Assembly: GCA_050953065.1 (NCBI GenBank)
Contig: JBMNLZ010000002.1
Span: 125,906 to 189,905, forward strand
Direction: 5' to 3'
DNA length: 64,000 bases
Origin: Bacilli bacterium
Lineage (GTDB): Bacteria; Bacillota_I; Bacilli_A; ML615J-28; CAG-698
Made by a program: the position numbers and the translations under genes. Positions 13,728 through 47,767 of this stretch are shown here, in pieces. Every line of letters begins with the position of its first letter. The first letter of the stretch is position 1. The notes under the pieces are model-generated. The model made no database searches. It was given only the letters and a program-made list of their open reading frames with translations, and was not told the DNA's origin.

Positions 13728-15263
<1,536 letters not shown>

Positions 15264-15463
15264 AAGGAGAAAGGTTAAACCTTTAACCAAAAATTATTTT
15301 AAATTTCTTTGATTTTTTACTCCATCATGTTCTATTTAGTTTTGAGAGACTTTGTCTTTCTAAAATATAGTTTTATTAATAGATCTTTGAAAATTGAATA
15401 GTACTTGTCGCAAGAAAGTAAGAACACTTTTTAAAAATTTTAGTGTTTAAATAAAAAGAATAA

Positions 15464-18327
<2,864 letters not shown>

Positions 18328-18364
18328 TAAAGCGATGAAGTACTATTCAATTTTGAAAGAGAAG

Positions 18365-18475
18365 TATGGTGACAACAGCAAAGTGGAAACACCTGTTCCC
18401 ATCTCGAACACAGAAGTTAAGCACTTTAACGCCGATGATAGTTGGGCTTCCCCGCAAAAGTAGGAAGTTGCCTTA
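18365..18475 (+). rRNA. rrf: 5S ribosomal RNA (ends approximate)
   Basis: Conserved CCTGTTCCCATCTCGAACACAGAAGTTAAGC and GCCGATGATAGT blocks; terminal helix pairing. Confidence 0.9.
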
Positions 18476-18572
18476 CTTCCTTTCTATTAATAAAAAAATA
18501 TATACATTTTAATATTTTTGTGTTAATATCTAATGTAGATAAAAGAGTTACAGATAATTTCACGCAAAAAAT

Positions 18573-18648
18573 GGAGGATTAGCTCAGCTGGGAGAGCATC
18601 TGCCTTACAAGCAGAGGGTCGGCGGTTCGATCCCGTCATCCTCCACCA
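18573..18648 (+). tRNA. tRNA-Val (anticodon TAC)
   Basis: Cloverleaf read by eye; anticodon loop CTTACAA; 3' CCA encoded. Confidence 0.85.
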
Positions 18649-18652
18649 TTGT

Positions 18653-18728
<76 letters not shown>

Positions 18729-18734
18729 TTCTTT

Positions 18735-18810
18735 GTCTCCGTAGCTCAGAAGGTAGAGCAACTGACTTTTAATCAGTGGGTCGGACGTTCGAATCGTCTC
18801 GGAGACACCA
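18735..18810 (+). tRNA. tRNA-Lys (anticodon TTT)
   Basis: Acceptor GTCTCCG/CGGAGAC; anticodon loop CTTTTAA; CCA encoded. Confidence 0.85.
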
Positions 18811-18833
18811 TTTCTCTACCAGATGAAAAATGC

Positions 18834-18920
18834 GCTTGAGTGGCGGAATAGGTAGACGCGCAGGACTTAAAATCCTGTGGTAGCAATACCGTGTGGGTTC
18901 AATTCCCACCTTAAGCACCA
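18834..18920 (+). tRNA. tRNA-Leu (anticodon TAA), long variable arm
   Basis: Anticodon loop CTTAAAA; class II variable arm; CCA encoded. Confidence 0.8.
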
Positions 18921-18936
18921 AAAGTTTTTAAAAGAT

Positions 18937-19012
18937 GGGTCCTTAGCTCAGCTGGGAGAGCGCCTGTTTTGCAAGCAGGAGGCCGACGGTTCGATCCCGT
19001 TAGGATCCACCA
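18937..19012 (+). tRNA. tRNA-Ala (anticodon TGC)
   Basis: Acceptor with G3:U70; anticodon loop TTTGCAA; CCA encoded. Confidence 0.85.
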
Positions 19013-19033
19013 TTTTTTTAAAGATTAGTAACT

Positions 19034-19110
19034 GGCGGTGTAGCTTAGCTGGCTAGAGCGTACGGTTCATACCCGTGAGGTCGGGGGTTCAAATCCCTCC
19101 ACCGCTACCA
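19034..19110 (+). tRNA. tRNA-Met, elongator (anticodon CAT)
   Basis: Close to the remembered Bacillus elongator tRNA-Met (GGCGGTGTAGC...GGTTCATACCCGT). Confidence 0.7.
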
Positions 19111-19115
19111 TAAGC

Positions 19116-19192
19116 GGACCCGTAGCTCAGTTGGTTAGAGCTACCGGCTCATAACCGGTCGGTCGCAGGTTCGAGTCCTGCTGGGTCCACCA
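19116..19192 (+). tRNA. tRNA-Ile2 (anticodon CAT, lysidine-type); Met not excluded
   Basis: CAT anticodon; body resembles the remembered Bacillus tRNA-Ile(LAU) (GGACC...GGCTCATAACCG...GGTTCGAGTCC). Confidence 0.6.
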
Positions 19193-19206
19193 GTTTTAAA
19201 ATGTAC

Positions 19207-19297
19207 GGAGGAATACCCAAGTCCGGCTGAAGGGATCGGTCTTGAAAACCGACAGGCGTGCGAGCGCGCGGGGGTTCGAATCCCTCTTCCTCCGCCA
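19207..19297 (+). tRNA. tRNA-Ser (anticodon TGA)
   Basis: GGAGGAATACCCAAGTCCGGCTGAAGG start; anticodon loop CTTGAAA; long variable arm. Confidence 0.85.
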
Positions 19298-19339
19298 TTT
19301 TATTAAAAATAAATTAAGTTAAATATATAAGCATAACAT

Positions 19340-19415
<76 letters not shown>

Positions 19416-19419
19416 AAAT

Positions 19420-19495
19420 GGTCCCATGGTGTAGTGGTTAACATGCCAGTCTGTCACACTGGAGATCGCGGGTTCAAGTCCCGTTGGGACCGCCA
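19420..19495 (+). tRNA. tRNA-Asp (anticodon GTC)
   Basis: Anticodon loop CTGTCAC; acceptor GGTCCCA/TGGGACC. Confidence 0.85.
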
Positions 19496-19501
19496 TTTTT
19501 T

Positions 19502-19577
19502 GGCTCAGTAGCTCAGTTGGTAGAGCGAAGGACTGAAAATCCTTGTGTCGGTGGTTCAATTCCGCCCTGAGCCACCA
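19502..19577 (+). tRNA. tRNA-Phe (anticodon GAA)
   Basis: Anticodon loop CTGAAAA; acceptor GGCTCAG/CTGAGCC; CCA encoded. Confidence 0.85.
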
Positions 19578-34653: not shown

Positions 34654-35283
34654 TTAATCTAATAATTTGATATAGTCTTTTGAATAATCAATTAAGCCTA
34701 AATCTTTTAAAAGGATTAACTCTCTTGATAAAGATGGCCTTGGAATATTTAAAAAAAGTGCTAGTTGTTCTTTTGATTTAATTTTGATTGTTTTTGATTT
34801 GGTCCTTTTACTAGTTTCAGATAAAAAGAATAAGATTTTATCTTTAATACTTTTTTGAGAAAGTATTTTAATTTTTTGTTGGAAAGCAATACTTTTATTG
34901 GACATAATAGATAAATAATTATTTAAGAATGTTTTATCGTTTTGCAAGATGTTTAATAGTTTATCTTTAGTAATCAAAGCAAGTTCAGTTGATTTAAAAG
35001 CACTAACATCTCCTAAAAAGAAAGGATTAGAATGGAAGAGTAAAAACTCTCCAAATAAATCATTTTCGTTTATTGTAATAATATTATATTCTTCTTCAAA
35101 GAATGTATAAGTATTAATTAAAACAGAACCTTTTAAAACTAAAGATAAATATTTACATTCATCTCCTTCATTAAAGATCATATCGTTTTTATTAAAAGTT
35201 TTGATTATAAAGAGATTACTATAGTCTTTTATAACATTTTCAAATAGTGGATGATTTTTCATTGTTTTTCCTTTCTGTAACAA
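34654..35283 (-). CDS. Crp/Fnr-family transcriptional regulator
   Basis: N-terminal cNMP-binding-like region; C-terminal HTH (RPSLSRELILLKDLGLI). Confidence 0.7.
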   Translation of the reverse strand: MLQKGKTMKNHPLFENVIKDYSNLFIIKTFNKNDMIFNEGDECKYLSLVLKGSVLINTYTFFEEEYNIITINENDLFGEFLLFHSNPFFLGDVSAFKSTELALITKDKLLNILQNDKTFLNNYLSIMSNKSIAFQQKIKILSQKSIKDKILFFLSETSKRTKSKTIKIKSKEQLALFLNIPRPSLSRELILLKDLGLIDYSKDYIKLLD

Positions 35284-35332
35284 ATGTTACGGCTATTTAA
35301 TTCTAACATATGTATAATGGTTTTGTAAAGAG

Positions 35333-36289
35333 GTGAAATGTATTATGAAAAAAATTATTGTAAGTTTAATGGTTATTGTCTTAGGGTTTTTCTTAGGCGC
35401 ATGTAGTAAAGAGGAAAAAGTTTATGGAGAGATTGATATCTTAGCACCATTTGGGACTCCTTTAATTGCAGTAGGAGGTTTGCTTGGAAAAGATAATATT
35501 AATATAGAAGCAGTCAATGATCCAAGTTTGTTAACAGCTGCGATGGTAACTAAAGAAAAAGATATTATCATTGCTCCAATTACTGCTGGGACTGCTAGTT
35601 ATATTAAGGGTGGGTCTGTTTATAAAATGGCTGGAATTGTTACTTTGGGGAATACTTATATTGTATCAAGAGAAAGTTCTACTTTAACAAGTGTTAATGA
35701 TTTAGAAGGGAAAACTATTACAGCTTATGGTAGAAATAATACTCCTGATATTGCTTTAAAACTTTTACTTGATAATGCTAATGTTACTGCAACAATTGAT
35801 TATCAAAACAGTGTTGGTGATGTTGTAGCGCTATTTAATGGAACTACTCCACCTGAATATATTTTAGTTGCAGAACCTTTCTTAACGCAGTTAAAGAATA
35901 AAAATACTTTAAATGTTTTAAATGTGGAAAGAGTTTTACAAGAAAAAGATGTTTTAGATAATATCTATCAAGCAGCAATCTTTGTTAATCCAGAAAGCGT
36001 TAAAGAAGATCTTAATCATGCTATTAGTTTAATTGAAGAAAACTTAAATTCTTTAAATAATAATCCAGAAAGTTATGCTGAAAGTGTTGTTGATAAACAT
36101 GCTTATTTTACTAATCTAGGAGTTGCAGTTTTAAAGAAAAGCCTACCTTCTGCAAATTTAGATTTTGTTGGAGCATTTGAAAATAAAACTGCAATTGAAA
36201 ATTACTATAATATTATAAATACCTATAACGATAAGCTATTTAATAATCAATTGCCTAATAGTGATTTTTATTATGAATATAATAAATAA
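35333..36289 (+). CDS. ABC transporter substrate-binding lipoprotein (NMT1/SsuA-like, tentative)
   Basis: Lipobox LGAC; about 300 aa; followed by an overlapping permease. Confidence 0.5.
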   Translation: MKCIMKKIIVSLMVIVLGFFLGACSKEEKVYGEIDILAPFGTPLIAVGGLLGKDNINIEAVNDPSLLTAAMVTKEKDIIIAPITAGTASYIKGGSVYKMAGIVTLGNTYIVSRESSTLTSVNDLEGKTITAYGRNNTPDIALKLLLDNANVTATIDYQNSVGDVVALFNGTTPPEYILVAEPFLTQLKNKNTLNVLNVERVLQEKDVLDNIYQAAIFVNPESVKEDLNHAISLIEENLNSLNNNPESYAESVVDKHAYFTNLGVAVLKKSLPSANLDFVGAFENKTAIENYYNIINTYNDKLFNNQLPNSDFYYEYNK

Positions 36290-37013
36290 AACATTTTATT
36301 TTATTGGAATTTTAATTATCTTTTTAGCTTGGTTTATAGGTAGTATAGTTATTCAAAATGAACTTGCTTTACCAAAGATTTCTTCAACATTTGAAAGTTT
36401 AATTAATCTATTAAAAAACAAAGAAACTTATTTAATAATTCTTAATACAATTTTTAGATTAATTATAACGATTATAATAACTTATTTAATTGCCTTTGTT
36501 TTAGTATTATTATCTAGTATTAGCATAAAAATAGAACAACTAATAAAACCACTTGTAGCGTTAATGAAGACATTGCCAGTGGCTGCGATTATTATAGTAT
36601 TACTAGTTAGTGTTGGAAGAAATAATAGTCCATATTTTATTACAGGTTTAGTTGTTTTACCTTTAATGTATGAAACTACTTTTATTGGAATTAAAAGTAT
36701 CAATAAAGGAATCACTGAAGAGATTAAAATGGATAGTAATGTTAATTGGTTAGTAGTAAGTAAAGTCTTTATTCCAATGACAATGCCATATATTCTAGCA
36801 GGGACAATCCAGTCTTTAGGATTAGGTTTAAAAGTAATGGTCATGAGTGAGTTTATTACTCAACCTAACCTTACAATTGGAGCTAAAATGTCAGAAGAAA
36901 GAGTCTATCAAAATCTAGATAATATCTTTGCTTGGACTATAATTTTGGTTGTGTTTATCTTTTTGGTTGAATACTTTTTAAAGAAAATTAAATTAAATGA
37001 GAATACTTATTAA
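36273..37013 (+). CDS. ABC transporter permease (six predicted TM segments)
   Basis: Hydrophobic ORF; start adjusted to ATG 36273 (MNIINK), overlapping the binding-protein gene by 17 nt. Confidence 0.6.
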   Translation: MNIINKTFYFIGILIIFLAWFIGSIVIQNELALPKISSTFESLINLLKNKETYLIILNTIFRLIITIIITYLIAFVLVLLSSISIKIEQLIKPLVALMKTLPVAAIIIVLLVSVGRNNSPYFITGLVVLPLMYETTFIGIKSINKGITEEIKMDSNVNWLVVSKVFIPMTMPYILAGTIQSLGLGLKVMVMSEFITQPNLTIGAKMSEERVYQNLDNIFAWTIILVVFIFLVEYFLKKIKLNENTY

Positions 37014-37148
37014 TGAAATTTAATTTTAAAAAATCTATAACTTATGTTGTAGATTTTTCTTTATATGTGTGCTAAAATGAAATAGCTTTGAAAAGCGATT
37101 TAAGGTGAAATTTAGGGCCTTAGAAAGAGAAATTAGAGGTGTTTAACG

Positions 37149-38906
37149 ATGAAAATATCTAAAACTATGTTTAAAGAATTTAGTAGATGTAATAGAGTGT
37201 ATCACTTAGATGAATTATACAAAAAACAAGGTTTTTCATCTAAATTTGATTTAGATAATGAAGAGATTTTAGAAATTCTTAATTTAATGTTTGATAGTGA
37301 AGGTGAAGACTTAATCGCTGATAATGCTAAAGTTGAAGCAATGATGGAATATTATAATGAAGTTGAAGTTTTAGCTATGGAAATGGCTAAGGAAAAGTTT
37401 AATTTAAATATTTTATATGGTGATACTTTTAAAAGCCAAGCTAAATGTTTTTTTGTAGATGAGGCTAATCATGAGTTTTATAGTTATCTAGATGGATTTT
37501 CTATAGAAAAAGATACTGTTTATGCTTTTGAAGTAAAAGCTACAACTAGTAAAAAATTTAGAGAAGAATTTAAAACTAAAGATAGCGGGAAAGAGTCTTT
37601 ATTTATTTATAATCATTTAGATGTTTTAGTTTTTAATCCTAATTTTATTCAAACTAAACATGTTGAAAAACTATTTAATAAATTAGGTGATATTGGTATG
37701 TATATTTATGACTGTGCCATAACTTATTATTATTTAAAAAATGATTTAAAATATAAAGATAAAAAGGTTAAATTTTATTTAGCAGTTTTAAATAGTGATT
37801 ATGTATATGATGGAAGTTTAATAAATAAAGAAAATAAAGACTTTAAAAAGGTCATTGACTATATCGACATAACAAGTATTTTAGAAGAATACTATCCAAC
37901 AATTTTTAAAGAAAAAGAATTGTTAGTTAACAATTTAAAATTAAAAGAAATTCCCAAATTAGTTTATGGAAAGAAGTGTGGTTTTAAAGGACAAGAATGT
38001 AAGTTTTTCCCTGTTTGTTGGGAGAAGTTAAAAGGTAGGGGAAGTATTCTAGAATACTTCAGGGTTACAGCTTCTAGCAAAATAGATTTATATGAAAAAT
38101 TAAATAATGAAGAAACGAGTCTATTAGATGTAGAAGATATCAATCTAACACCTAATCAATTAATTCAAAAAGAAGTCTTTATAAGTGGCAGTGTTCATAT
38201 GAACAAAGAAAAAATTTCTAAAGCAATTAGCCTAATTAAGCATCCGATTTATTATTTAGATTTTGAAACATTTGCTTCTCCATTACCTAGATTTATTGGC
38301 GAAAAACCATATGCTCAATCTTTATTTCAATATTCACTTCATGTAGAAAAAACTCCTTTTAAATGTGATTTTGATAAAGACCATTATGAATATTTAGTAA
38401 AAGATGCTAAAGACTACCGAAGAGAATTAATTGAAAAGCTAATTAAAGATATTGATTTAAAAAAAGGTGGAAGCGTGATAGTTTATAATGCATCGTTTGA
38501 GTCTACAAGATTAAAAGAAATGGCTTTGATTTTTCCAGAATATGAAAAAGAAATAAATAAGATAAGAGATAGTTTGTTTGATCTTCAAAATCTATTGAAA
38601 GCTAAATCATCTTTATATGAAGCACTAGGTTATGATGAAGAAGAAGCAAAAATTAATCCGTATTATCATAATGATTTAGCAGGAAGTTATTCAATTAAAA
38701 AAGTTTTACCGATTTTTTCTAATCTTACTTATTCTTCTTTAGATATTAAAAATGGAGGAGAAGCTATCATTGCTTATGCAATGCTTGCTAGGTTAGAAAA
38801 AGAAGACAGAGAAATTTTAAGAAGCAATTTAATTAAATATTGTAAGCAAGATACTTGGGCAATGGTTCTAATCTTACATAATATTATAAAGGAAATAAGA
38901 AGATGA
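37149..38906 (+). CDS. Hypothetical two-domain protein, DUF2779-like: N-terminal PD-(D/E)XK-like region plus C-terminal DEDD/RNase-H-like region (predicted nuclease)
   Basis: Motifs DGF...YAFEVKAT (D...E.K) N-terminally; YYLDFETFASP (exonuclease motif I-like) C-terminally; the DUF2779 name is from memory. Confidence 0.4.
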   Translation: MKISKTMFKEFSRCNRVYHLDELYKKQGFSSKFDLDNEEILEILNLMFDSEGEDLIADNAKVEAMMEYYNEVEVLAMEMAKEKFNLNILYGDTFKSQAKCFFVDEANHEFYSYLDGFSIEKDTVYAFEVKATTSKKFREEFKTKDSGKESLFIYNHLDVLVFNPNFIQTKHVEKLFNKLGDIGMYIYDCAITYYYLKNDLKYKDKKVKFYLAVLNSDYVYDGSLINKENKDFKKVIDYIDITSILEEYYPTIFKEKELLVNNLKLKEIPKLVYGKKCGFKGQECKFFPVCWEKLKGRGSILEYFRVTASSKIDLYEKLNNEETSLLDVEDINLTPNQLIQKEVFISGSVHMNKEKISKAISLIKHPIYYLDFETFASPLPRFIGEKPYAQSLFQYSLHVEKTPFKCDFDKDHYEYLVKDAKDYRRELIEKLIKDIDLKKGGSVIVYNASFESTRLKEMALIFPEYEKEINKIRDSLFDLQNLLKAKSSLYEALGYDEEEAKINPYYHNDLAGSYSIKKVLPIFSNLTYSSLDIKNGGEAIIAYAMLARLEKEDREILRSNLIKYCKQDTWAMVLILHNIIKEIRR

Positions 38907-39613
38907 GATTAGATAAGTTTTTATCTTTTAATAGATATGGTTCTAGAAGACATGTTAAGAAGTTGATTAGAGAAGGTGTAGTTAGTGTCAATGATAAAAT
39001 AATTAGAAATGATGATTTTATTATTGATGAGGAAAATGATGTAGTAAGAGTTTTTGAAGAAGAAGTAATTTACCAAAAAGATATCTATATTATGTTAAAC
39101 AAGCCTCAAGGAGTAATTTGTGCAACTATTGATGAGTTTAAAAAAACTGTTATAGATTTATTAGAAAATGTTAGAAAAGAAGGATTAATAATTTTAGGTA
39201 GGCTTGACAAAGATACTGAAGGATTATTAATTATTACTAATAATAAGAGCTTGCAACACGAATTACTTTCTCCTAAGCATCATGTTGCTAAAAAGTATTA
39301 TGTAGAGTTTAGTGGAACTTGGCAAGATGATTATATAAATCTTTTTAAAGAAGGGATCATAATAAGAGAAAGTAGGGGAGAATATAAAACAAAAGCATCT
39401 TTAATTGAAAAACTAGATGATAATAAAGCATATCTTACTTTATATGAAGGTAGATACCATCAAGTAAAAAAGATGTTTATTGCACTTGGTTTAAAAGTTA
39501 CTTATTTAAAAAGAGTAGAGTTTAACAATTTAAAATTAGATGAAACATTAGCTTTAGGTGAATATAGAAATTTAACAAAAGAAGAAATTGAAATATTAAA
39601 AAAAGTACTTTAA
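38903..39613 (+). CDS. rsuA: 16S rRNA pseudouridine synthase (RsuA family) with S4 domain
   Basis: S4-like N-terminus (LDKFLS...GSRR); catalytic motif ILGRLDKDTEGLLIITN; 4-nt overlap with upstream gene. Confidence 0.8.
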   Translation: MRLDKFLSFNRYGSRRHVKKLIREGVVSVNDKIIRNDDFIIDEENDVVRVFEEEVIYQKDIYIMLNKPQGVICATIDEFKKTVIDLLENVRKEGLIILGRLDKDTEGLLIITNNKSLQHELLSPKHHVAKKYYVEFSGTWQDDYINLFKEGIIIRESRGEYKTKASLIEKLDDNKAYLTLYEGRYHQVKKMFIALGLKVTYLKRVEFNNLKLDETLALGEYRNLTKEEIEILKKVL

Positions 39614-39636
39614 AAGATATTTTAAAGTACTTTTAT
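39603..39636. terminator. Bidirectional terminator between rsuA and the convergent lipoprotein gene
   Basis: Near-perfect palindrome AAGTACTTTAAAA / TTTTAAAGTACTT. Confidence 0.6.
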
Positions 39637-39639
39637 TTA

Positions 39640-41478
39640 TTATTCTATAACATAAATTATCTTACTCCAAACAACACTAAATGTTGTAAGACTATATTCG
39701 ATATAAACATCACTTACATTTGGATCATTACAAATAATGAAAGTTCCATTATCAGTAATTTTGTATCCTCTAACAACTAGTAAGTGTCCTGGTACATCAT
39801 AATTAGCTTCTACCATATTACCTCTTACAGTGGTTGAGATTGGACCAACTGTTTCTAAGTGGTGGAAAAGTTCTTCAAATGAATAAAGTCTTTTAACATA
39901 ACTTATCTCTCCAAAGGAAGACATTGTTACACAGTTATATACCCAGTTACCATAAATTTGATGTCCGTAGTCTCTTGAAAGCCCTGCAATGTATCTGTGT
40001 TCATATGTGTCCATATGAGCAAAACTATAACCTTTATATTTTAGAAGCATTGTAGCGCTTGTTGGGCTACAAATACTATTACCAATTGTTGGAACAATTT
40101 TTTGATTTAGTTTTGGAACCTCATAATCTTTAAAGCCGCTGATAATACTTTCGTCTACTTCAAAGGTATAATCTGGAATTTTTAAAGCAGCAGTAACAAA
40201 ACTTGCAACAGGGAAAGGATCAGATAAAAAGTTTCTTTTTAAAATCAGTTTATATTGGAAAGCATTAGCTGTTTTATCGTTTTGAACTTTTATTTCATCA
40301 ACTGCCATTTTAGCGATTGGTTTGTCTTGGTCAGTATAAGCATTTTGAAGATGTAATCCCCATGCTCCGTATGTTAAGTATTCACTCCAAACATCATCAA
40401 CTCTAACTCTAATTTGAAGTTCACAAGTTCCTTTGTTTTCATTCTCATCAGATGTAAGTGCTCCCCAAGAACCAATTAATTCTGAAAAGTTTAGAGTTTG
40501 GATTACTTTAGAAGTATAAGTCCCAGTTAGTGCATTGTCATCTAAAATTAATTTTTCATTGAATAATTTAACATTGTCAAATGTTCCATTGAAGTTTTCA
40601 GCAAGTCCTTTATATAAATGTCCGTTGAATTGTTCGATACCATCGGGTAGTTTTGAAATGTTTAAATTAAAAGTATGTGTCATTGTTAAATCTCCTTGAG
40701 TTTTTAGAGTTACTGTTAGATTAACTATCTTTTCTTCATCTTGCATAAAGACATAGCCTTTATTTGATAAAATCTCTTCATTGCTTGACTGCCAAGTAGC
40801 AGTTACATTATATAAAAAATTAGTTGGAAGTAAAACTGAAGAATTTAGTGTCTCAGGAAAAGAGATACTGTTTAAGGCAATTTCTAATTTTTTATCATCA
40901 TCTGGTGGTAAGACATCGATTGTAAAAGATTTAGTAATAGTAGCATTTGAAAATCTTAAAGTAGCCATTAAAGTAACTGTAGTTGGTTTTAAAACAACGC
41001 CAACAATTCCATCTTTGTTTAAAACGCCACTTGCAGTAGAAGTCCAAGTGATTCTAGCAAAGCCAATTGTTGTTGGCAGGTTTAAATTTTCGCTAGTTTC
41101 TGTTGGTAGAGCAAGTTCAAGTGCTAGTGTTTCTAAGTCGTTGTGATAATCAGGAGTATATAAGAAAACATCAAATGTTTTAGTAACGGTCTTACTCTTA
41201 TAAGATAGTGTTAAAGTGAGTGCAACTAATTGATCTTCTTCAAATGGATAAATTACTCCAGTATTATCAATTACAGTGGGGATGTTTGATTCCCAAGTAG
41301 CAGTAACGCCTTCTTCAAAAACTGTAGGTAGGGTAATGTTTTCTTTAATATCAACAATTTCTTCAGGGATTGAAACTGAGTTTATTATTTTGGTTAAATC
41401 TATTTTTTTCTTACACCCTGTTAAAAATAATAAACTAAAACCAAACAAAATTAAAAATATTTTTTTCAAAATAATCAC
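39640..41478 (-). CDS. Surface lipoprotein with Ig-like repeats and a C-terminal papain-like cysteine peptidase (C39-like) domain
   Basis: Lipobox LTGC; repeated modules (TATWQSSNEEILSNKGYV); C-terminal NSICSPTSATMLL with later His. Confidence 0.6.
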   Translation of the reverse strand: MIILKKIFLILFGFSLLFLTGCKKKIDLTKIINSVSIPEEIVDIKENITLPTVFEEGVTATWESNIPTVIDNTGVIYPFEEDQLVALTLTLSYKSKTVTKTFDVFLYTPDYHNDLETLALELALPTETSENLNLPTTIGFARITWTSTASGVLNKDGIVGVVLKPTTVTLMATLRFSNATITKSFTIDVLPPDDDKKLEIALNSISFPETLNSSVLLPTNFLYNVTATWQSSNEEILSNKGYVFMQDEEKIVNLTVTLKTQGDLTMTHTFNLNISKLPDGIEQFNGHLYKGLAENFNGTFDNVKLFNEKLILDDNALTGTYTSKVIQTLNFSELIGSWGALTSDENENKGTCELQIRVRVDDVWSEYLTYGAWGLHLQNAYTDQDKPIAKMAVDEIKVQNDKTANAFQYKLILKRNFLSDPFPVASFVTAALKIPDYTFEVDESIISGFKDYEVPKLNQKIVPTIGNSICSPTSATMLLKYKGYSFAHMDTYEHRYIAGLSRDYGHQIYGNWVYNCVTMSSFGEISYVKRLYSFEELFHHLETVGPISTTVRGNMVEANYDVPGHLLVVRGYKITDNGTFIICNDPNVSDVYIEYSLTTFSVVWSKIIYVIE

Positions 41479-41646
41479 CTCTTTTTTAATGATTATATCA
41501 TTATTTAATTAAATATAAAAGTTAATTATAGAAACTTTTATTTTATAAATTTGCTAGTTTTAAAGAAAAATGATAATTTTATTAAAAGCTTTAAAAAAGA
41601 TAAAAAAAGGGTTTAAAACGTTTTCTTTTTGTGGTATAATGCTTTT

Positions 41647-42744
41647 ATGAGCGCTTTCATTTTAGAAAAAATAGATAAGAATTTTAAAGATAGTAAGTTT
41701 ATTGATAGTAATCTTGATTGGTATGATGTCTTAAAAATGAAAGATTACGTAAAGGGACTATATTGGTTTAAAACTAATAATAGTTTTTCAAGGCTAGATG
41801 ATAATTTAGAAGTAAGAGATAATCTAAAGGTTTTATCTTTAATGCCAAGTGGAGGATATCTTGAGTTTGAAAGTGATACTGATGAGATATCTTTAGATGT
41901 TGAATTAGAGGATAGTTACTTCATGCCACATATGACTGCAATAGGTCAAGCGGGCTTTGATTTATATGCAAAGTTTGGTGAAAAGTTTATTTATTTAGCT
42001 AGTACTAAAACAAAAGAGATAAAATATCGATATAATCTTTATAAAAGTGATAAAAAAGAGTTAAGAACCTATAGAATTTATCTACCAATGTACATAAAAA
42101 TTTTAAGTTTAAGTTTAGGTTTAGGTAAGGATGGTATAATAAGAGGTACATCGGAGAATAAAGGCGCATATATTGTGTGTTATGGAACTTCTATTACTCA
42201 AGGTGGATGTGCAACAAGACCTGGTATGAATTATACAAGCATCTTAGAAAGGCATATTGATTATAGAGTTTTAAATTTTGGCTTTTCTGGGAATGCTCAT
42301 TTAGATAGTGTAATAGCTAAAGAAATTGTAAAAATTAATCCTGAAATAGTTATAATAGAGGCTATTGCAAATTGTTTAGGTAAAGATTTCTTTGAAGAAA
42401 ATTTGAAAGAATTTATAAAAATTGTTTCAAGAAAAGCCAGTGTTATTGTTACTAGTTATTTTCCAAGTTCTAGTGCTTTAATTGATATTAATAAAGATAA
42501 GTTAATTAAAGAAAGCACTAAAATTGTTAAAAAAGTTATCAAAGAAATTAATAATGAGAATGTGTATTTTTTAGATGGTTTTGAAATATTAAAAGAACTA
42601 GACTATGAAGAAACAGTAGATGGCATACATCTAACTGATTTAGGCTTTTATTTCTTAGCTATGAAGTTAAGAGACAAAATAAAAAAAATAAAACGTGAGG
42701 TGGAAAGAAAAAAATGTTTAAGCAAAAAAGATTTTTCGTATTAG
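41647..42744 (+). CDS. SGNH/GDSL-type hydrolase (esterase/acylhydrolase) with an N-terminal extra domain
   Basis: Block I GTSITQGG (Ser nucleophile) and later DGIH; track start 41629 is a TTG inside a TATAAT box, so ATG 41647 is preferred. Confidence 0.6.
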   Translation: MSAFILEKIDKNFKDSKFIDSNLDWYDVLKMKDYVKGLYWFKTNNSFSRLDDNLEVRDNLKVLSLMPSGGYLEFESDTDEISLDVELEDSYFMPHMTAIGQAGFDLYAKFGEKFIYLASTKTKEIKYRYNLYKSDKKELRTYRIYLPMYIKILSLSLGLGKDGIIRGTSENKGAYIVCYGTSITQGGCATRPGMNYTSILERHIDYRVLNFGFSGNAHLDSVIAKEIVKINPEIVIIEAIANCLGKDFFEENLKEFIKIVSRKASVIVTSYFPSSSALIDINKDKLIKESTKIVKKVIKEINNENVYFLDGFEILKELDYEETVDGIHLTDLGFYFLAMKLRDKIKKIKREVERKKCLSKKDFSY

Positions 42745-45419
42745 TATTCATGTTATTGGTGGGCTTACTATTAGTGGCTTGTGATAAGCCAGTTGCTGTT
42801 GGCCCTGGAATCAGCTTTGTTGATGGTGAAATTACTATGGAAGTTGGAGCAGAAATTAATCTAAGCTCTAGTTTAACTCTAACTGGTATTGATAATATTA
42901 GTTTGATTACTTTTACAACAACTAAACCTGGTTTAATTCAAATTAGCGGTACAACAATTAAAGCTCTTGCTGCAGGTAATGGAACAGTTACAGCTGCTCT
43001 AGCAAGTGATAGTAGTATATCAGATACTGTAATTGTTAGAATAACTGCAGGTTCAAACACTTTAAGTGCTTTAGAAGTTAGTGCAGTTGATACGTTCTTA
43101 GGAATAGGTGGAAGTGCAATGTTATCAGTTACTCCAACTCCTGCTACTGCATCAAATGCAGTTACATGGAGTAGTAGTGATAATACAGTTGCTACAGTTT
43201 CTGCAACAGGATTAGTTAATGCTGTTGGATTAGGTGCAGCTACAATTACTGCAACTTCAAGTGTTTCTAGTTCAATCACTGGTTCAATTAATATTTATGT
43301 AAATGAAGCAAGTGAACCTGGTGAAATTACAATTAATGGTAATTCATCAGTTGCTGCTGGTAGTTCTACTCAATTAATGGCAGCATTTGAAAATACTTAT
43401 TATTCTAGTGTTACTTGGACTTCAGCAAACAATGCAATTGCAACTGTTAGTGCTAGTGGCGTTGTTACTGGTGTAACTCAAGGTAGTGTAATTATTACAG
43501 CAATGGCAGGGCCTGCTAATGAATATACAAAAACTATTACAATTACAGTAACTGCTGGAACTGGTGCTCCTACAATTAATATTACTGGAAATAGTAGTGT
43601 TCAAGTAGGTGCGACTGCTCAATTAACTGCTCAAGTAAATGGTGGAGCAGGAAATGTTCTTTGGTCATCTAGCGATAATGAAAAAGCTACAGTTTCAACA
43701 ACTGGGCTTGTAACTGGTATTGAAGCTGGTCCAGTAGTAATTACTGCGACTTTAGCAACAAATCCAAGTGTTACAGCAACATTTAATATAACTGTAATTG
43801 CTGGTGGGTCTGCGACTATTTCTATTTCAGGATCTACTTCAGTTAATAAAAATTCAACAATCTCATTGACTGCTAGTGCATCTGTAAATGGTACTCCTGT
43901 AAGTGGTACTATTCAATGGAGTTCAAGTGATGTTAATATAGCAATCGTTAATAATGGTCAAGTTTATGGTGTTGAAGCAGGTACTGCAATTATTACAGCT
44001 GCTTTAGCAGATAATACAAGTGTTTACTCAACTATTAGTATTCAAGTTATTGATCCAAACTCTGGTGGTGGTGGTGGAGATGAACCTACTTCACTTGCTA
44101 TTACTGGTGTAAGTGGTGTTAACGTTGGTTCAACTCTTCAATTAGGTTATACTATTACTCCGACTCCAAGTGGAGCGGTTACTATTGAATGGGTTTCAAG
44201 CAACTCATTAATCGCAAGCGTTTCTGCTACTGGTCTTGTTACTGGTGTATCAGTAGGTACTGCTGTTATTTATGCAACTATTGAAGGAACTTCAGTTACT
44301 GGTACTGCAAATATTAGTGTAACTAATCCTCCTGCTGATCCTACTATTCAAGCATCAGCATCAAATTCAACAATCGTAGTTGGTGGATATACTCAAATTA
44401 GTGCGACAACTGATCCAGCTGGTGCGGATGTTCAATATACATCTGATAATACAAGTATAGCTACAGTTGATCAAACTGGTAAAGTTACAGGTGTTGCTGC
44501 TGGTAACGCAGTAATCACTGTTTCATTAGTAAGTAACTCTGCAATTAAAGCTACTGTTGCAATTAAGGTTGACCCTGCTCCTGCAACTTCAATTACACTT
44601 ACTTTAAGATTAGAAGATATGAGCAATAATCCTGTTGCTTATGCATTAATCGGTGGAGCTGATACTCAAGTAACAATTACTAATATCGCTCAAACAGGTT
44701 CTTCTACAAGATATGACTTTGACTGGTCAAGTAGTGCAACAAATATAGCAACAATTTCTAGTGCTGGTACAATTACTCCAGTTGCTGCTGGTAAGACAAC
44801 AATTACAGCTGAATTGAAGTCAAATCCTCAAACAAAAGGATCTGTAGAAATTCAAATTTTAGCAACACCGCCTGCAACATTAACTTTAACTGCAACTAAG
44901 ACAAGCTTTGCAGTTGGTGAAACTTCTCAAGTTAGTGTAACTGGTGGAACTGCAGCGACATTCAGTCTTCCAGAAGGCGATGAATGGAAAGCATCAATTG
45001 ATGCAAGTACTGGACTTGTTACAGCTAAAGCTCCTTCAATAGTTGTAGTTACTGCAACTTCTACAGCTGATCCATTAGTTAAGGGTACTATTACTTTAAC
45101 AATCACAGCTGCTGCTGGTGCCTTAAATGTTAAGGTATATCAAAGCAGTGCTCAAGGTGGATCTACTGGTACAAGTTTAACTGAAATTTCTAAGGCAGCT
45201 GCTGATGGCGGTGGAGCTGGATATTATCAAGTTTATGTTTATGACTCAAGTGGTGTTGCAATCAGCCGTACAGCATGTACATTCACTACTACTGATGGTA
45301 ATGTTTGTACAGTAAGTATTTATGGTTCAATTACTGCAGTAGCAATTGGTGGTCCAGTAACAATCAAAGCTGTTTATGGTAGCCAAGAAGGAACTGTAAC
45401 TATTTCAGTTGTAGCGTAA
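42714..45419 (+). CDS. Large surface lipoprotein with multiple Ig-like (Big_2) repeats
   Basis: Lipobox LVAC; about 10 tandem 80-90 aa Ser/Thr/Ala/Gly-rich modules (e.g. WSSSDNxxATVSxTGLVTGVxxG). Confidence 0.7.
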   Translation: MFKQKRFFVLVFMLLVGLLLVACDKPVAVGPGISFVDGEITMEVGAEINLSSSLTLTGIDNISLITFTTTKPGLIQISGTTIKALAAGNGTVTAALASDSSISDTVIVRITAGSNTLSALEVSAVDTFLGIGGSAMLSVTPTPATASNAVTWSSSDNTVATVSATGLVNAVGLGAATITATSSVSSSITGSINIYVNEASEPGEITINGNSSVAAGSSTQLMAAFENTYYSSVTWTSANNAIATVSASGVVTGVTQGSVIITAMAGPANEYTKTITITVTAGTGAPTINITGNSSVQVGATAQLTAQVNGGAGNVLWSSSDNEKATVSTTGLVTGIEAGPVVITATLATNPSVTATFNITVIAGGSATISISGSTSVNKNSTISLTASASVNGTPVSGTIQWSSSDVNIAIVNNGQVYGVEAGTAIITAALADNTSVYSTISIQVIDPNSGGGGGDEPTSLAITGVSGVNVGSTLQLGYTITPTPSGAVTIEWVSSNSLIASVSATGLVTGVSVGTAVIYATIEGTSVTGTANISVTNPPADPTIQASASNSTIVVGGYTQISATTDPAGADVQYTSDNTSIATVDQTGKVTGVAAGNAVITVSLVSNSAIKATVAIKVDPAPATSITLTLRLEDMSNNPVAYALIGGADTQVTITNIAQTGSSTRYDFDWSSSATNIATISSAGTITPVAAGKTTITAELKSNPQTKGSVEIQILATPPATLTLTATKTSFAVGETSQVSVTGGTAATFSLPEGDEWKASIDASTGLVTAKAPSIVVVTATSTADPLVKGTITLTITAAAGALNVKVYQSSAQGGSTGTSLTEISKAAADGGGAGYYQVYVYDSSGVAISRTACTFTTTDGNVCTVSIYGSITAVAIGGPVTIKAVYGSQEGTVTISVVA

Positions 45420-45437
45420 GCTAATTAAAAATAAATT

Positions 45438-45476
45438 TAGGTATCTATTTTAAAAAATAGATACCTATTTTTTTAT
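45438..45476 (+). terminator. Rho-independent terminator after the Big_2 lipoprotein gene
   Basis: Stem AGGTATCTATTT / AAATAGATACCT followed by a T-run. Confidence 0.75.
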
Positions 45477-45531
45477 TGAATAAAAAGATTAATGATAGTA
45501 TAATTTATAATTGGATGGAGTAATAAAAATT

Positions 45532-46398
45532 ATGGATTATTATACAATAGATTTTGAAACTGCGAACTCTTCATTAACTAGTGCTTGTAGTATTGGGATT
45601 GTTGGAGTAAAAAATGGAGTTATTAAATTAGAAGAATATTATTTAATAAATCCTGAAGAAGAGTTTTGTGAGCAAAATATTTTAATACATAATATTAAAG
45701 AAAATGATGTAAAAGATGCCCTAAAATTTAGTGAAGTTTGGAAGAAAATAAAACATTATTTTACTGAAACATATGTTTTTGCACATAATGCACATTTTGA
45801 TATCAGTGTCTTAAAAGCATGTCTTGAAAAATATAATCTTGAAAAACCAAGTTTTAATTTTGGGTGTACTGTAAGAATTGCTCAAAAACTTTGGAAAGAA
45901 GAATTGCCTAATGTTAAGCTTCAAACTATTTCAAGATATTTAAACTTAAATCACAATCACCATAATGCATTAAGTGATGCATATGTTTGTGCTGAGATTG
46001 TAATTTTGGCTGAAAGGATACATTCAGTAGCAACCCATACTGAATTATATGAAGCGCTAGGACTTTCTTTTGGAGTTTTAAATAAAGAGAAGTTTTTAAA
46101 TACTACCAGTAAATATAAAAATAAAATTAAACCAAAAGTTAATAATAAAGCATTAAAAGAAAAAGTAATTGTAATTTCTGGAAAACCTAAAAATTTAACT
46201 AGGAAATCATTGATTGAAAAATTATTAATTAATGGGGCATATATTGATAAAAACATTAATCGAAGAACTGATTATTTTGTTGAATTAGATAATTGTGTAA
46301 AAACACTAAAAGATAAAGCTTTAAGGATGAAAGAAGAAAGTCATTTAGAAATTATCGATGAAGCTAAACTTTTAAGACTATTGGAGATAGAATGTTAA
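45532..46398 (+). CDS. DnaQ-like 3'-5' exonuclease (DEDDh) fused to a C-terminal BRCT-like domain
   Basis: Exo motifs IDFETAN, FAHNAHFD, HNALSDA; C-terminal KVIVISGKPKNLTRKSL; start adjusted to ATG 45532. Confidence 0.7.
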   Translation: MDYYTIDFETANSSLTSACSIGIVGVKNGVIKLEEYYLINPEEEFCEQNILIHNIKENDVKDALKFSEVWKKIKHYFTETYVFAHNAHFDISVLKACLEKYNLEKPSFNFGCTVRIAQKLWKEELPNVKLQTISRYLNLNHNHHNALSDAYVCAEIVILAERIHSVATHTELYEALGLSFGVLNKEKFLNTTSKYKNKIKPKVNNKALKEKVIVISGKPKNLTRKSLIEKLLINGAYIDKNINRRTDYFVELDNCVKTLKDKALRMKEESHLEIIDEAKLLRLLEIEC

Positions 46399-47234
46399 GA
46401 TATGAAATAGATAGTGTGTTTTTAGGTTTAACAATAGCTGAATTTTTTGAAAAGTTTCATCTTTCAAAAAAGTTAATTTATTTATTAAAAGTAAATAAAG
46501 ATGTTTTTGTTAATTGCGAAAACAAGAATTTTGATTATTGTTTAAAACTAGGTGATATTTTAGAAATCGATGAAACAAAATATGAGTTTAATAATTGTGT
46601 TCCTTGGAAAAATTCTTTAGATATTGTTTATGAAGATGAGGATATCTTAATCGTTAATAAACCAGTTAATATGTTAGTTCATCCTGATGGGAATACTGAT
46701 TTTACTTTAAACAATATTGTTAGTTTTTATTACCAAACAATTGGTTTAGATAGAATGCCAAGACATATTCATAGACTTGATTTTCAAACTAGCGGAATTG
46801 TAGTATATGCTAAAAGTTTTTTAGTTAGTAGTAATTTATCTTGGCAGTTAGAAAATGGTTTAATAGAAAAGACGTATTTGGCTTTAGTTGAAAATTTCAA
46901 AGGAGATTATTTAGAGATTAATTCTAAGATTGCAAGAGATAGACATACTAATAATAAATATATGATTTCAAAAAAAGGTAAAGATGCAATAAGTATTGTA
47001 AAAAAGATAGAAGAAATAAATAAAAAACCTCTTTTAGAAGTAAAGATAATAACTGGAAGAACTCATCAGATTAGAGTTCACTTAGCATCAGTGGGTTCTC
47101 CCATTATAGGTGATAATATATATGGTGGTAAAATATCTAAAGAGATGTTTTTGCATCATTACAAAATATCTTTTATTCATCCTAGAAGTTTAGTAAGAGC
47201 AGAATATGTTTGTAAGAAGGAATTTAAATGTTAG
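46392..47234 (+). CDS. RluA-family pseudouridine synthase
   Basis: Catalytic motif HRLDFQTSG; C-terminal HQIRVH motif. Confidence 0.8.
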   Translation: MLRYEIDSVFLGLTIAEFFEKFHLSKKLIYLLKVNKDVFVNCENKNFDYCLKLGDILEIDETKYEFNNCVPWKNSLDIVYEDEDILIVNKPVNMLVHPDGNTDFTLNNIVSFYYQTIGLDRMPRHIHRLDFQTSGIVVYAKSFLVSSNLSWQLENGLIEKTYLALVENFKGDYLEINSKIARDRHTNNKYMISKKGKDAISIVKKIEEINKKPLLEVKIITGRTHQIRVHLASVGSPIIGDNIYGGKISKEMFLHHYKISFIHPRSLVRAEYVCKKEFKC

Positions 47235-47767
47235 ATAAAGTTTTAGAATTTCAAAGAATTAAAATAAAAGAAGTTTTAACCAAAGCTGATGTTGCAATTG
47301 ATGCAACATGTGGAAATGGTTTTGATACGCATTTTTTAGCAGACCTTGCTAAGAAAGTATATGCATTTGATATCCAAGAAGAAGCATTTAATAATACTAA
47401 AGAAAAGTTAAAGGATTATAAGAACGTATGTTTTTGTAAAACTTCACATGAGAATATTAAAGACTATGTTAAAGAAGAAATCAAAGTTTGTATGTTTAAT
47501 TTAGGGTTTTTACCAAAAGGAGATAAGAATATTACTACTAAAGCAGAAACTACTTTAATTGCCTTAAAGCAAACACTTGCTTTATTAAAAAAACAAGGTA
47601 TAATAACTTTGGTATGTTATGAAGGACATCCTGAAGGGGAAAAAGAAAGCATAGTTATTCAAAGCTTTCTTAAGACTTTAAACCAAAAAGAGTTTCAAGT
47701 TTTAAAATATGAATTCATTAATCAAGTTAATTATCCACCGTATTTATTGATTATTGAAAAAATATAG
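47228..47767 (+). CDS. Class I SAM-dependent methyltransferase (putative rRNA methylase, YtqB-like)
   Basis: SAM-binding motif IDATCGNGFDT; about 180 aa; follows the pseudouridine synthase. Confidence 0.6.
   Translation: MLDKVLEFQRIKIKEVLTKADVAIDATCGNGFDTHFLADLAKKVYAFDIQEEAFNNTKEKLKDYKNVCFCKTSHENIKDYVKEEIKVCMFNLGFLPKGDKNITTKAETTLIALKQTLALLKKQGIITLVCYEGHPEGEKESIVIQSFLKTLNQKEFQVLKYEFINQVNYPPYLLIIEKI

Follow-up and report, generated by a model that had tools for sequence, protein, structure and literature searches.

The DUF2779 gene and its rsuA-family neighbour

The gene considered here lies in a 64,000-nucleotide (nt) stretch of DNA from a Bacilli bacterium (contig JBMNLZ010000002.1, positions 125,906 to 189,905), referred to below as the window, whose G+C content is ~30%. 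It encodes a 585-amino-acid (aa) protein of the DUF2779 family and is followed on the same strand by a gene for a 236-aa pseudouridine synthase (Table 1). An earlier reading made from the sequence alone, hereafter the sequence-only reading, had taken the larger protein for a DUF2779-like two-domain nuclease translationally coupled to rsuA. Both open reading frames (ORFs) are present as it described them, as is the 4-nt overlap, an ATGA at 38903 in the context ...AGA AGA TGA, in which the stop codon of the first gene meets the start codon of the second. The start of the DUF2779 gene is further backed by an alignment in which the N-termini of 33 homologues (MKISKT...) coincide. The name given to the downstream gene was right as to family and too narrow as to type. 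Its product passes only the general subfamily model TIGR00093 of NCBIfam, and its best match there, RsuA, reached 173 bits, under that model's cutoff of 275; rsuA-family is therefore the safe name.

The larger protein matched Pfam PF11074 (DUF2779) over the whole profile (aa 368-515, profile positions 1-126 of 126) with 132.5 bits and an E-value of 1.4e-38, against a gathering threshold of 23.3 bits, which confirms the suspected membership; all 33 aligned homologues matched the same family. Its plan is the one typical of the family, a PD-(D/E)XK (DUF83/Cas4-like) domain placed N-terminal to an RNase H-like domain, and the identical protein is listed at NCBI as 'MAG: DUF2779 domain-containing protein [Bacilli bacterium]', where MAG stands for metagenome-assembled genome. 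Relatives come mostly from Acholeplasmataceae-like genomes, and the PF11074-type family is large, with 6,863 representative clusters at 50% identity (E <= 0.001). No family of PADLOC-DB v2 matched the window protein at E <= 1 and PHROGs gave no match to it, while none of 50,697 phage records matched the DUF2779 family and IMG/VR yielded one matching contig; the family is essentially absent from viruses. The gene is a typical representative of this widespread family, in which a nuclease of Cas4/RecB type and a 3'-5' exonuclease of the proofreading type are joined in one chain.

Two predicted nuclease domains on one chain

The 33 homologues, which share 38-83% identity, were aligned, and AlphaFold2 was run on that alignment. 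The resulting model of the 585-aa protein has a mean predicted local distance difference test score (pLDDT) of 87.5 and a predicted template modelling score (pTM) of 0.83. Its N-terminal half adopts the PD-(D/E)XK core fold and its C-terminal half an RNase H-like exonuclease fold, and the two are joined by a linker without family assignment, in which DSSP places helices at residues 300-304, 314-319, 335-346 and 353-360. The N-terminal half matched RecE (score 9.8), Cas4 SSO0001 (9.5) and the AdnAB nuclease (9.1), and Foldseek likewise returned RecE, MGME1, SSO0001, EXO5 and Cas4-Cas1, at weak E-values of at least 6.5e-3; the structural neighbours of this domain are DNA nucleases, all of them. 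The strongest matches of the C-terminal half were the proofreading domains of DNA polymerases.

Searches of the PDB sequences, by phmmer with the protein and by hmmsearch with a profile of the 33 sequences, gave nothing significant. The best match, at E 0.031, was a de novo TIM barrel and was rejected as spurious; further non-significant matches were Cas4 8d3l (E 0.11), over a short stretch covering the three-cysteine block, and the ExoIII motif of Pol gamma, whose 'YCaQDvwA' was aligned to 'YCKQDTWA' of the window protein. The Pfam profiles PF01930 (Cas_Cas4) and PF12705 (PDDEXK_1) did not match the protein or its 33 close homologues at E <= 1, and PF01930 came near its threshold only in distant relatives of ~500 aa (P0264, 22.3 versus 22.7 bits; P0242 and P0268, weaker). 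PF13482 (RNase_H_2) matched 14 of the 33 close homologues weakly (best E 1e-05), and neither RNase_T nor DNA_pol_A_exo1 matched the window protein above threshold.

Conservation was followed in 120 close homologues and in 159 alignment rows drawn from the 50%-identity representatives. In the close homologues the 16 tested positions are invariant save for one substitution, at Y185. The catalytic residues of the N-terminal domain lie in the motifs LDGF (D115) and FEVKAT (E128 and K130); in the model, D115 directly precedes strand 116-120 while E128 and K130 fall inside strand 123-133, a predicted placement that is canonical for PD-(D/E)XK enzymes and in keeping with a RecB/Cas4-type fold. In the C-terminal domain, the motif YYLDFETF puts the ExoI residues D371 and E373 on strand 367-376, the ExoII motif N447-A-S-F-E451 stands at the start of helix 448-461, and the ExoIII motif Y564-C-K-Q-D568 lies in the last helix. 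As modelled, this half is a DnaQ-like DEDD fold with a DEDDy site composed of D371, E373, E451, Y564 and D568. Among the representatives, at least 98% keep each DEDD motif position except N447 (120/135); values for the individual residues are given in Table 1.

Four cysteines, C14 near the N-terminus and the block C277-x6-C284-x5-C290 after the core, are invariant in the close homologues as well. In Cas4, AddB, Exo5 and Dna2 a [4Fe-4S] cluster is bound by cysteines arranged in this way, a single one ahead of the core and three behind it, and we infer from the sequence that the four residues form a putative site of this kind. The conservation of these sites, in close homologues and representatives alike, makes both heads look catalytically competent and subject to purifying selection, and the chain very probably has two nuclease active sites, each intact and of a known type. 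The sequence-only reading had proposed a PD-(D/E)XK half and a DEDD-like half from the motifs around D115 and D371; structure prediction bore out both, each with a nuclease fold and conserved catalytic residues.

Table 1. Features of the DUF2779 locus, with positions counted from the first letter of the window and, for single residues, the share of representative sequences that keep the residue.
Feature	Position	Strand	Kept in representatives	Remarks
Shine-Dalgarno-like GAGGTG	37136..37141	+		7 nt 5' of the DUF2779 gene ATG; read from sequence
DUF2779-family gene, two-domain predicted nuclease, 585 aa	37149..38906	+		ORF; ATG start, stop TGA 38904-38906
N-terminal RecB/Cas4-like PD-(D/E)XK nuclease domain (predicted), about aa 1-295	37149..38033	+
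C14 codon	37188-37190	+	75/81	putative [4Fe-4S] site
D115 codon	37491-37493	+	91/94	catalytic, N-terminal domain
E128 codon	37530-37532	+	78/93	catalytic, N-terminal domain
K130 codon	37536-37538	+	77/92	catalytic, N-terminal domain
C277 codon	37977-37979	+	118/132	putative [4Fe-4S] site
C284 codon	37998-38000	+	123/129	putative [4Fe-4S] site
C290 codon	38016-38018	+	122/130	putative [4Fe-4S] site
Mostly helical linker between the nuclease domains, about aa 296-365	38034..38243	+		DSSP on the AlphaFold2 model
C-terminal DEDDy-type 3'-5' exonuclease fold (predicted), the DUF2779 domain proper, about aa 366-585	38244..38903	+
D371 codon	38259-38261	+	138/139	ExoI
E373 codon	38265-38267	+	137/139	ExoI
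E451 codon	38499-38501	+	133/135	ExoII-like, N447-x-x-F-E451
Y564 codon	38838-38840	+	132/132	ExoIII, Y564-x3-D568
D568 codon	38850-38852	+	130/132	ExoIII, Y564-x3-D568
Junction	38889..38906	+		AAGGA 38889-38893, then 9 nt, then rsuA-family ATG 38903-38905 on DUF2779 TGA 38904-38906
RsuA-family pseudouridine synthase gene, 236 aa	38903..39613	+		S4 and PseudoU_synth_2 domains; Pfam, NCBIfam

The combination of two nucleases has been described before and is not new. Majorek 2014 assigned PF11074 to the 3'-5' exonuclease clade within the RNase H-like superfamily and recorded its co-occurrence with DUF83/PD-(D/E)XK. A 2026 mSphere paper described MMSYN1_0389, a quasi-essential DUF2779 protein of JCVI-syn3.0, as a fusion of a Cas4-like and a DEDD nuclease, the latter with Tyr in the 'h' position, in which two of the four Cas4 cysteines are left; a phylogenomic paper on Cas4 (PMC5704561) makes no mention of a Cas4-DEDD fusion. 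MMSYN1_0389 and the mycoplasma/ureaplasma UU173 family (NCBIfam NF045869) share with the window protein the Pfam family and the plan of a Cas4-like domain followed by a DEDD domain with an ExoIII Tyr; the triad D186/E210/K212 there corresponds to D115/E128/K130. The window protein is not itself a UU173 member, however, since it reached 76.6 bits on that profile (positions 222-644 of 650) against a cutoff of 225. It is also shorter, at 585 aa versus 650 profile positions, and it keeps, with its clade, all four cysteines. What is new here is this four-cysteine set, read from the alignments as kept by the clade and most of the family, together with the Glu-for-Asp variant of ExoII, a confident model for an Acholeplasma-like member and the negative findings on rsuA and on a conserved partner gene given below; the addition is a modest one.

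The protein can be set against several groups of enzymes. Relative to the RecB-like nucleases considered (Cas4 in the form of SSO0001, PDB 4IC1, and of type I-C, 8D3L; AddB, AdnAB, Exo5, MGME1 and RecE), it has large insertions at about aa 20-95 and 134-182 and its fusion partner is another nuclease, not a helicase or Cas1, and its gene, unlike that of CRISPR-associated Cas4, does not stand next to cas1 or cas2. Relative to the DEDDy and DEDDh exonucleases (the proofreading domains of family-B and family-A polymerases, ExoI, Pol III epsilon and MrfB, 8UN9), its ExoII acid is Glu and not Asp, and its DEDDy domain is not attached to a polymerase. The COG2251 proteins (PF13482 plus DUF83; Majorek 2014) also combine PD-(D/E)XK and an RNase H-like exonuclease in one chain; they belong to a different Pfam family, are likewise uncharacterised, and often add tandem AAA domains, of which the window protein has none. 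The end-resecting complexes AddAB, AdnAB and RecBCD differ from it in that it is a single 585-aa chain with no helicase motor, that its second head is of the DEDD type and not another RecB-like domain, and that it has no experimental link to recombination.

Gene neighbourhood in the window and in related genomes

The coupling to rsuA had been offered as informative, on condition that the gene pair be conserved in related genomes. In a set of related loci taken as one genome per species (80 loci at 37-47% identity), in none of the 80 species did tblastn with the window RsuA detect a homologue within 6 kb of DUF2779. Other window neighbours were recovered in subsets of these loci (the ABC permease, binding protein, Crp-like regulator, C39-like peptidase, SGNH lipase, exonuclease-BRCT and RluD-like genes), which indicates that the search itself worked. 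The pair is confined to two closer relatives: it occurs with the same 4-nt overlap in one of 83% identity (three contigs, L081-L083) and in one of 70% identity (L084), where a truncated ORF downstream shares 67% identity with the window RsuA. In six of the nearest outgroup loci (L001-L003, L014, L016 and L018), a convergent C39-like peptidase gene comes directly after DUF2779, with gaps of 23-42 nt, and since in the window this gene comes after rsuA, the simplest history is that rsuA was inserted within the lineage of the window. Gene overlaps are, moreover, common here: in the window, 15 of the 50 same-strand pairs of neighbouring ORFs overlap, 4 of them in exactly the 4-nt form. Judged from the sequence of the junction, co-transcription and translational coupling of the two genes are plausible, and the overlap would probably give co-expression, but these carry no functional information; the overlap is a recent, lineage-specific case of compact operon packing and no clue to function. 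Synteny with rsuA was accordingly rejected as a functional clue, the pair not being conserved in the 80 species.

Clustering of the flanking ORFs across 83 loci revealed no universal partner gene of DUF2779. The idea of one partner conserved across the family was rejected, the recurrent neighbours being clade-dependent: a cysS/mrnC block, an ABC exporter, a pyrimidine-nucleoside phosphorylase gene (pdp), RecX or a C39 peptidase. One arrangement, found in 27 of the 80 species, all of Acholeplasmataceae type (L011, L013, L017, L019-L021, L025, L027-L029, L031, L034, L037, L039-L046, L048, L050, L057, L058, L070 and L075), runs gltX, a GLUG-motif lipoprotein, DUF2779, cysS, mini-RNase III (mrnC), a P-type ATPase, a SpoU-type rRNA methyltransferase (rlmB-like) and a sigma factor. 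This is a housekeeping block, and DUF2779 has in it roughly the position that cysE has in the Bacillus subtilis cluster gltX-cysE-cysS-mrnC-rlmB-yacP-sigH. In some subclades an ABC exporter lies immediately upstream of DUF2779; in seven loci (L026, L032, L038, L061, L065, L066 and L067) 0-14 nt separate the end of the pdp gene from the DUF2779 start; and in five (L035, L049, L071, L074 and L079) a RecX gene follows 261-308 nt downstream. There was no cas-gene cluster among the recurrent neighbour clusters of the 83 loci, nor is there a cas or defence gene among the annotated genes at 34654-47767 of the window.

Several of the contigs with Acholeplasma/Bacilli-like DUF2779 loci (L002, L054, L059, L065, L069, L074, L078 and L079) are titled as 'uncultured Muribaculaceae' or 'Bacteroidales' MAGs. 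Their gene content, low in G+C and of Bacilli type, suggests that those assemblies were mis-binned or mislabelled.

Outside this clade, distant relatives of ~490 aa, about 30% identical over the C-terminal 55-63%, occur on 29 plasmids, where the neighbours of DUF2779 are helicase, ATPase, PLD or WYL genes. Some of the plasmid cassettes are defence-like, with the orders DEAD helicase - ATPase - DUF2779 - PLD and PD-(D/E)XK - DUF2779 - WYL or with toxin-antitoxin neighbourhoods. Examples were seen in Planktothrix agardhii plasmid p2 (L088, 1-5867), Aliarcobacter butzleri p63 (L086, 4329-7758) and a Helicobacter plasmid (L085, 3046-7065); the cassette types in these three comprise a DEAD/DEAH helicase with an ATP-binding protein and a PLD-family nuclease, a PD-(D/E)XK nuclease with a WYL protein, and a large AAA ATPase. 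They look like uncharacterised defence or DNA-processing modules. Given such cassettes, the wider DUF2779 family may include accessory members, while the window's clade behaves as if the gene were part of the core genome.

Within the window, the annotated genes at 34654..47767 include a Crp-like regulator, ABC transporter parts, RsuA, a C39-like peptidase, an SGNH lipase, a surface protein, an exonuclease-BRCT protein and an RluD-like protein. A promoter and terminator scan of 36800-39800 called no terminator and found 13 promoter-like sites, against a shuffle mean of 19.1, none of them in the intergenic stretch 37014-37148. An extended -10-like element seen there by eye (TGcTAAAAT, 37070-37078) was not called by the scan and is not claimed. 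Rfam showed no element near the DUF2779 gene, either here or in 10 related loci, and hence no T-box or riboswitch leader.

The motif DFET, which the sequence-only reading had also noticed in the exonuclease-BRCT gene, is indeed present there, as IDFETAN in the ORF 45511/45532..46398, but it is no evidence of close kinship: hhalign of the DUF2779 family profile against the exonuclease-BRCT protein found no detectable relationship. That protein is an RNase_T/DnaQ-type exonuclease by Pfam and NCBIfam; its BRCT match is weak and below cutoff, as is its best NCBIfam match, PRK06195. Its gene (+) overlaps by 7 nt that of an RluD/RluA-family synthase (46392..47234, +), so that the window holds a second pair of a DEDD exonuclease and an overlapping pseudouridine synthase; this pair, unlike DUF2779-rsuA, recurs in other loci (L012, L014, L016 and L018). 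Two further genes encode predicted surface or secreted proteins, one of 612 aa with atrophied bacterial Ig domains and a Peptidase_C39-like domain (39640..41478, -) and one of 901 aa, an Ala/Thr/Ser-rich repeat protein with a signal-peptide-like N-terminus (42714..45419, +). At 13728..19574 (+), a complete 16S-23S-5S rRNA operon with 11 clustered tRNA genes behind it accounts for a local rise of the G+C content to 44-48%.

Proposed role in DNA metabolism and competing explanations

By analogy with its relatives, the DUF2779 protein may work on DNA ends or on single-stranded DNA. The Fe-S nuclease head would cut or degrade strands from the 5' side, as do Cas4, RecE, MGME1 and AddB, and the DEDDy head would take nucleotides off 3' ends, like proofreading domains, ExoI and MrfB, so that both strands at DNA ends, gaps or flaps could be blunted, trimmed or destroyed by one enzyme. 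There is no built-in helicase, and a separate one would probably be involved. The task would be a housekeeping one in DNA repair, recombination or the clearance of DNA fragments. The gene's clade shows a core-genome, non-viral, non-defence context, and in Mycoplasma bovis a transposon mutant of the DUF2779 gene was growth-deficient in cell culture, the same screen yielding RecD, HolA and DnaB mutants. The core-genome place in Acholeplasma-like Bacilli and the growth defects of mutants in mycoplasma homologues argue for a housekeeping DNA role, and Rocha 2005, according to whom mollicutes have no RecJ and 'may use an alternative exonuclease', and carry RecD2 without RecBC, leaves room for such an enzyme. 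A bias towards DNA also shows in the structural neighbours of the N-terminal domain, DNA nucleases without exception, and in the RecX gene downstream of DUF2779 in five loci. The 2026 mSphere paper adds that the MMSYN1_0389 product must have a role beyond immunity.

Several points weigh against this proposal. The neighbours are often RNA or translation genes, namely rsuA here and mrnC, rlmB, cysS and gltX elsewhere. Many RNases are DEDD enzymes, and there are PD-(D/E)XK enzymes that cut RNA. Throughout the family, Glu takes the place of Asp as the ExoII acid, and the cysteine spacing, C-x6-C-x5-C, departs from the canonical C-x2-C-x5-C of Cas4. The clustering of the cysteines and acidic residues in space was derived from their secondary-structure placement only. 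Finally, no biochemical study of any DUF2779 family member was found in the literature searched, so that what is said here of the substrate (DNA or RNA), of polarity and of Fe-S binding is inference throughout. Taken with the two-nuclease architecture, the proposal as a whole stands somewhat better than even; the DNA-end housekeeping role by itself falls a little short of an even chance.

The same two heads could serve RNA, the DEDDy head trimming 3' ends in the manner of RNase T or RNase D and the PD-(D/E)XK head cutting or trimming 5' ends, in rRNA or tRNA maturation or in RNA turnover; co-translation with a 16S pseudouridine synthase would then reflect a shared role in ribosome biogenesis. 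The RNA-related neighbours cited above would suit it, but RsuA is missing from the neighbourhood in all 80 other species, 4-nt overlaps are common in the window, and the gltX...sigH cluster is an ancestral housekeeping block of functionally mixed members with gaps between neighbours of 26-136 nt. The N-terminal structural neighbours are DNA nucleases throughout and the strongest C-terminal matches proofreading domains of DNA polymerases; to our knowledge, the known Fe-S PD-(D/E)XK nucleases (Cas4, AddB, Exo5 and Dna2) all act on DNA. We consider an RNA-processing role improbable. A defence nuclease of the 'solo-Cas4' type, degrading invading phage or plasmid DNA, is brought to mind by the heading 'immunity connections' under which the mSphere paper treats MMSYN1_0389, and it is held to be more doubtful still, as there was no PADLOC match, no cas or defence gene is annotated at 34654-47767, the family is essentially absent from phages, and the core-genome position is stable over 27 species with housekeeping neighbours.

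Nucleotide salvage deserves equally little credence. Here a cytoplasmic enzyme would degrade DNA or RNA fragments from both ends and so supply nucleotide recycling where de novo synthesis is limited, and its dual polarity would fit complete degradation; the pyrimidine-nucleoside phosphorylase gene lies immediately upstream in seven loci (gap 0-14 nt), and among the hits of the M. bovis screen were, besides the DUF2779 gene, the nanoRNase NrnA and GdpP, the paper stressing nucleotide recycling. The pdp adjacency is, however, limited to one subclade (nearby in 12/83 loci), an Fe-S cluster and a proofreading-like exonuclease would be unusual in a bulk salvage enzyme, and the window protein is taken to be without the signal peptide or membrane anchor that is typical of mycoplasma salvage nucleases.

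A more specific form of the DNA-end role is that DUF2779 is a helicase-independent DNA-end nuclease of Mollicutes-like bacteria, standing in for RecJ/AddAB-type resection by means of a 5'-acting Fe-S Cas4-like head and a 3'-acting DEDDy head on the same chain, with the Acholeplasma-like clade keeping an ancestral Fe-S form that was later simplified in mycoplasmas. This is an unlikely idea; if true, it would explain the quasi-essentiality of the homologue in JCVI-syn3.0.

Together, the survey gives no consistent functional clue from the gene neighbourhood, rsuA included, and the locus makes the function of this quasi-essential family no more tractable than before. The window's own contribution is a well-behaved, confidently modelled representative with the full four-cysteine signature, and little else. 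Of the quasi-essential genes that still lack a known function in the synthetic minimal cell, one belongs to the DUF2779 family, and establishing what the members of this family do would fill a gap both in the parts list for minimal life and in the DNA (or RNA) metabolism of wall-less bacteria.

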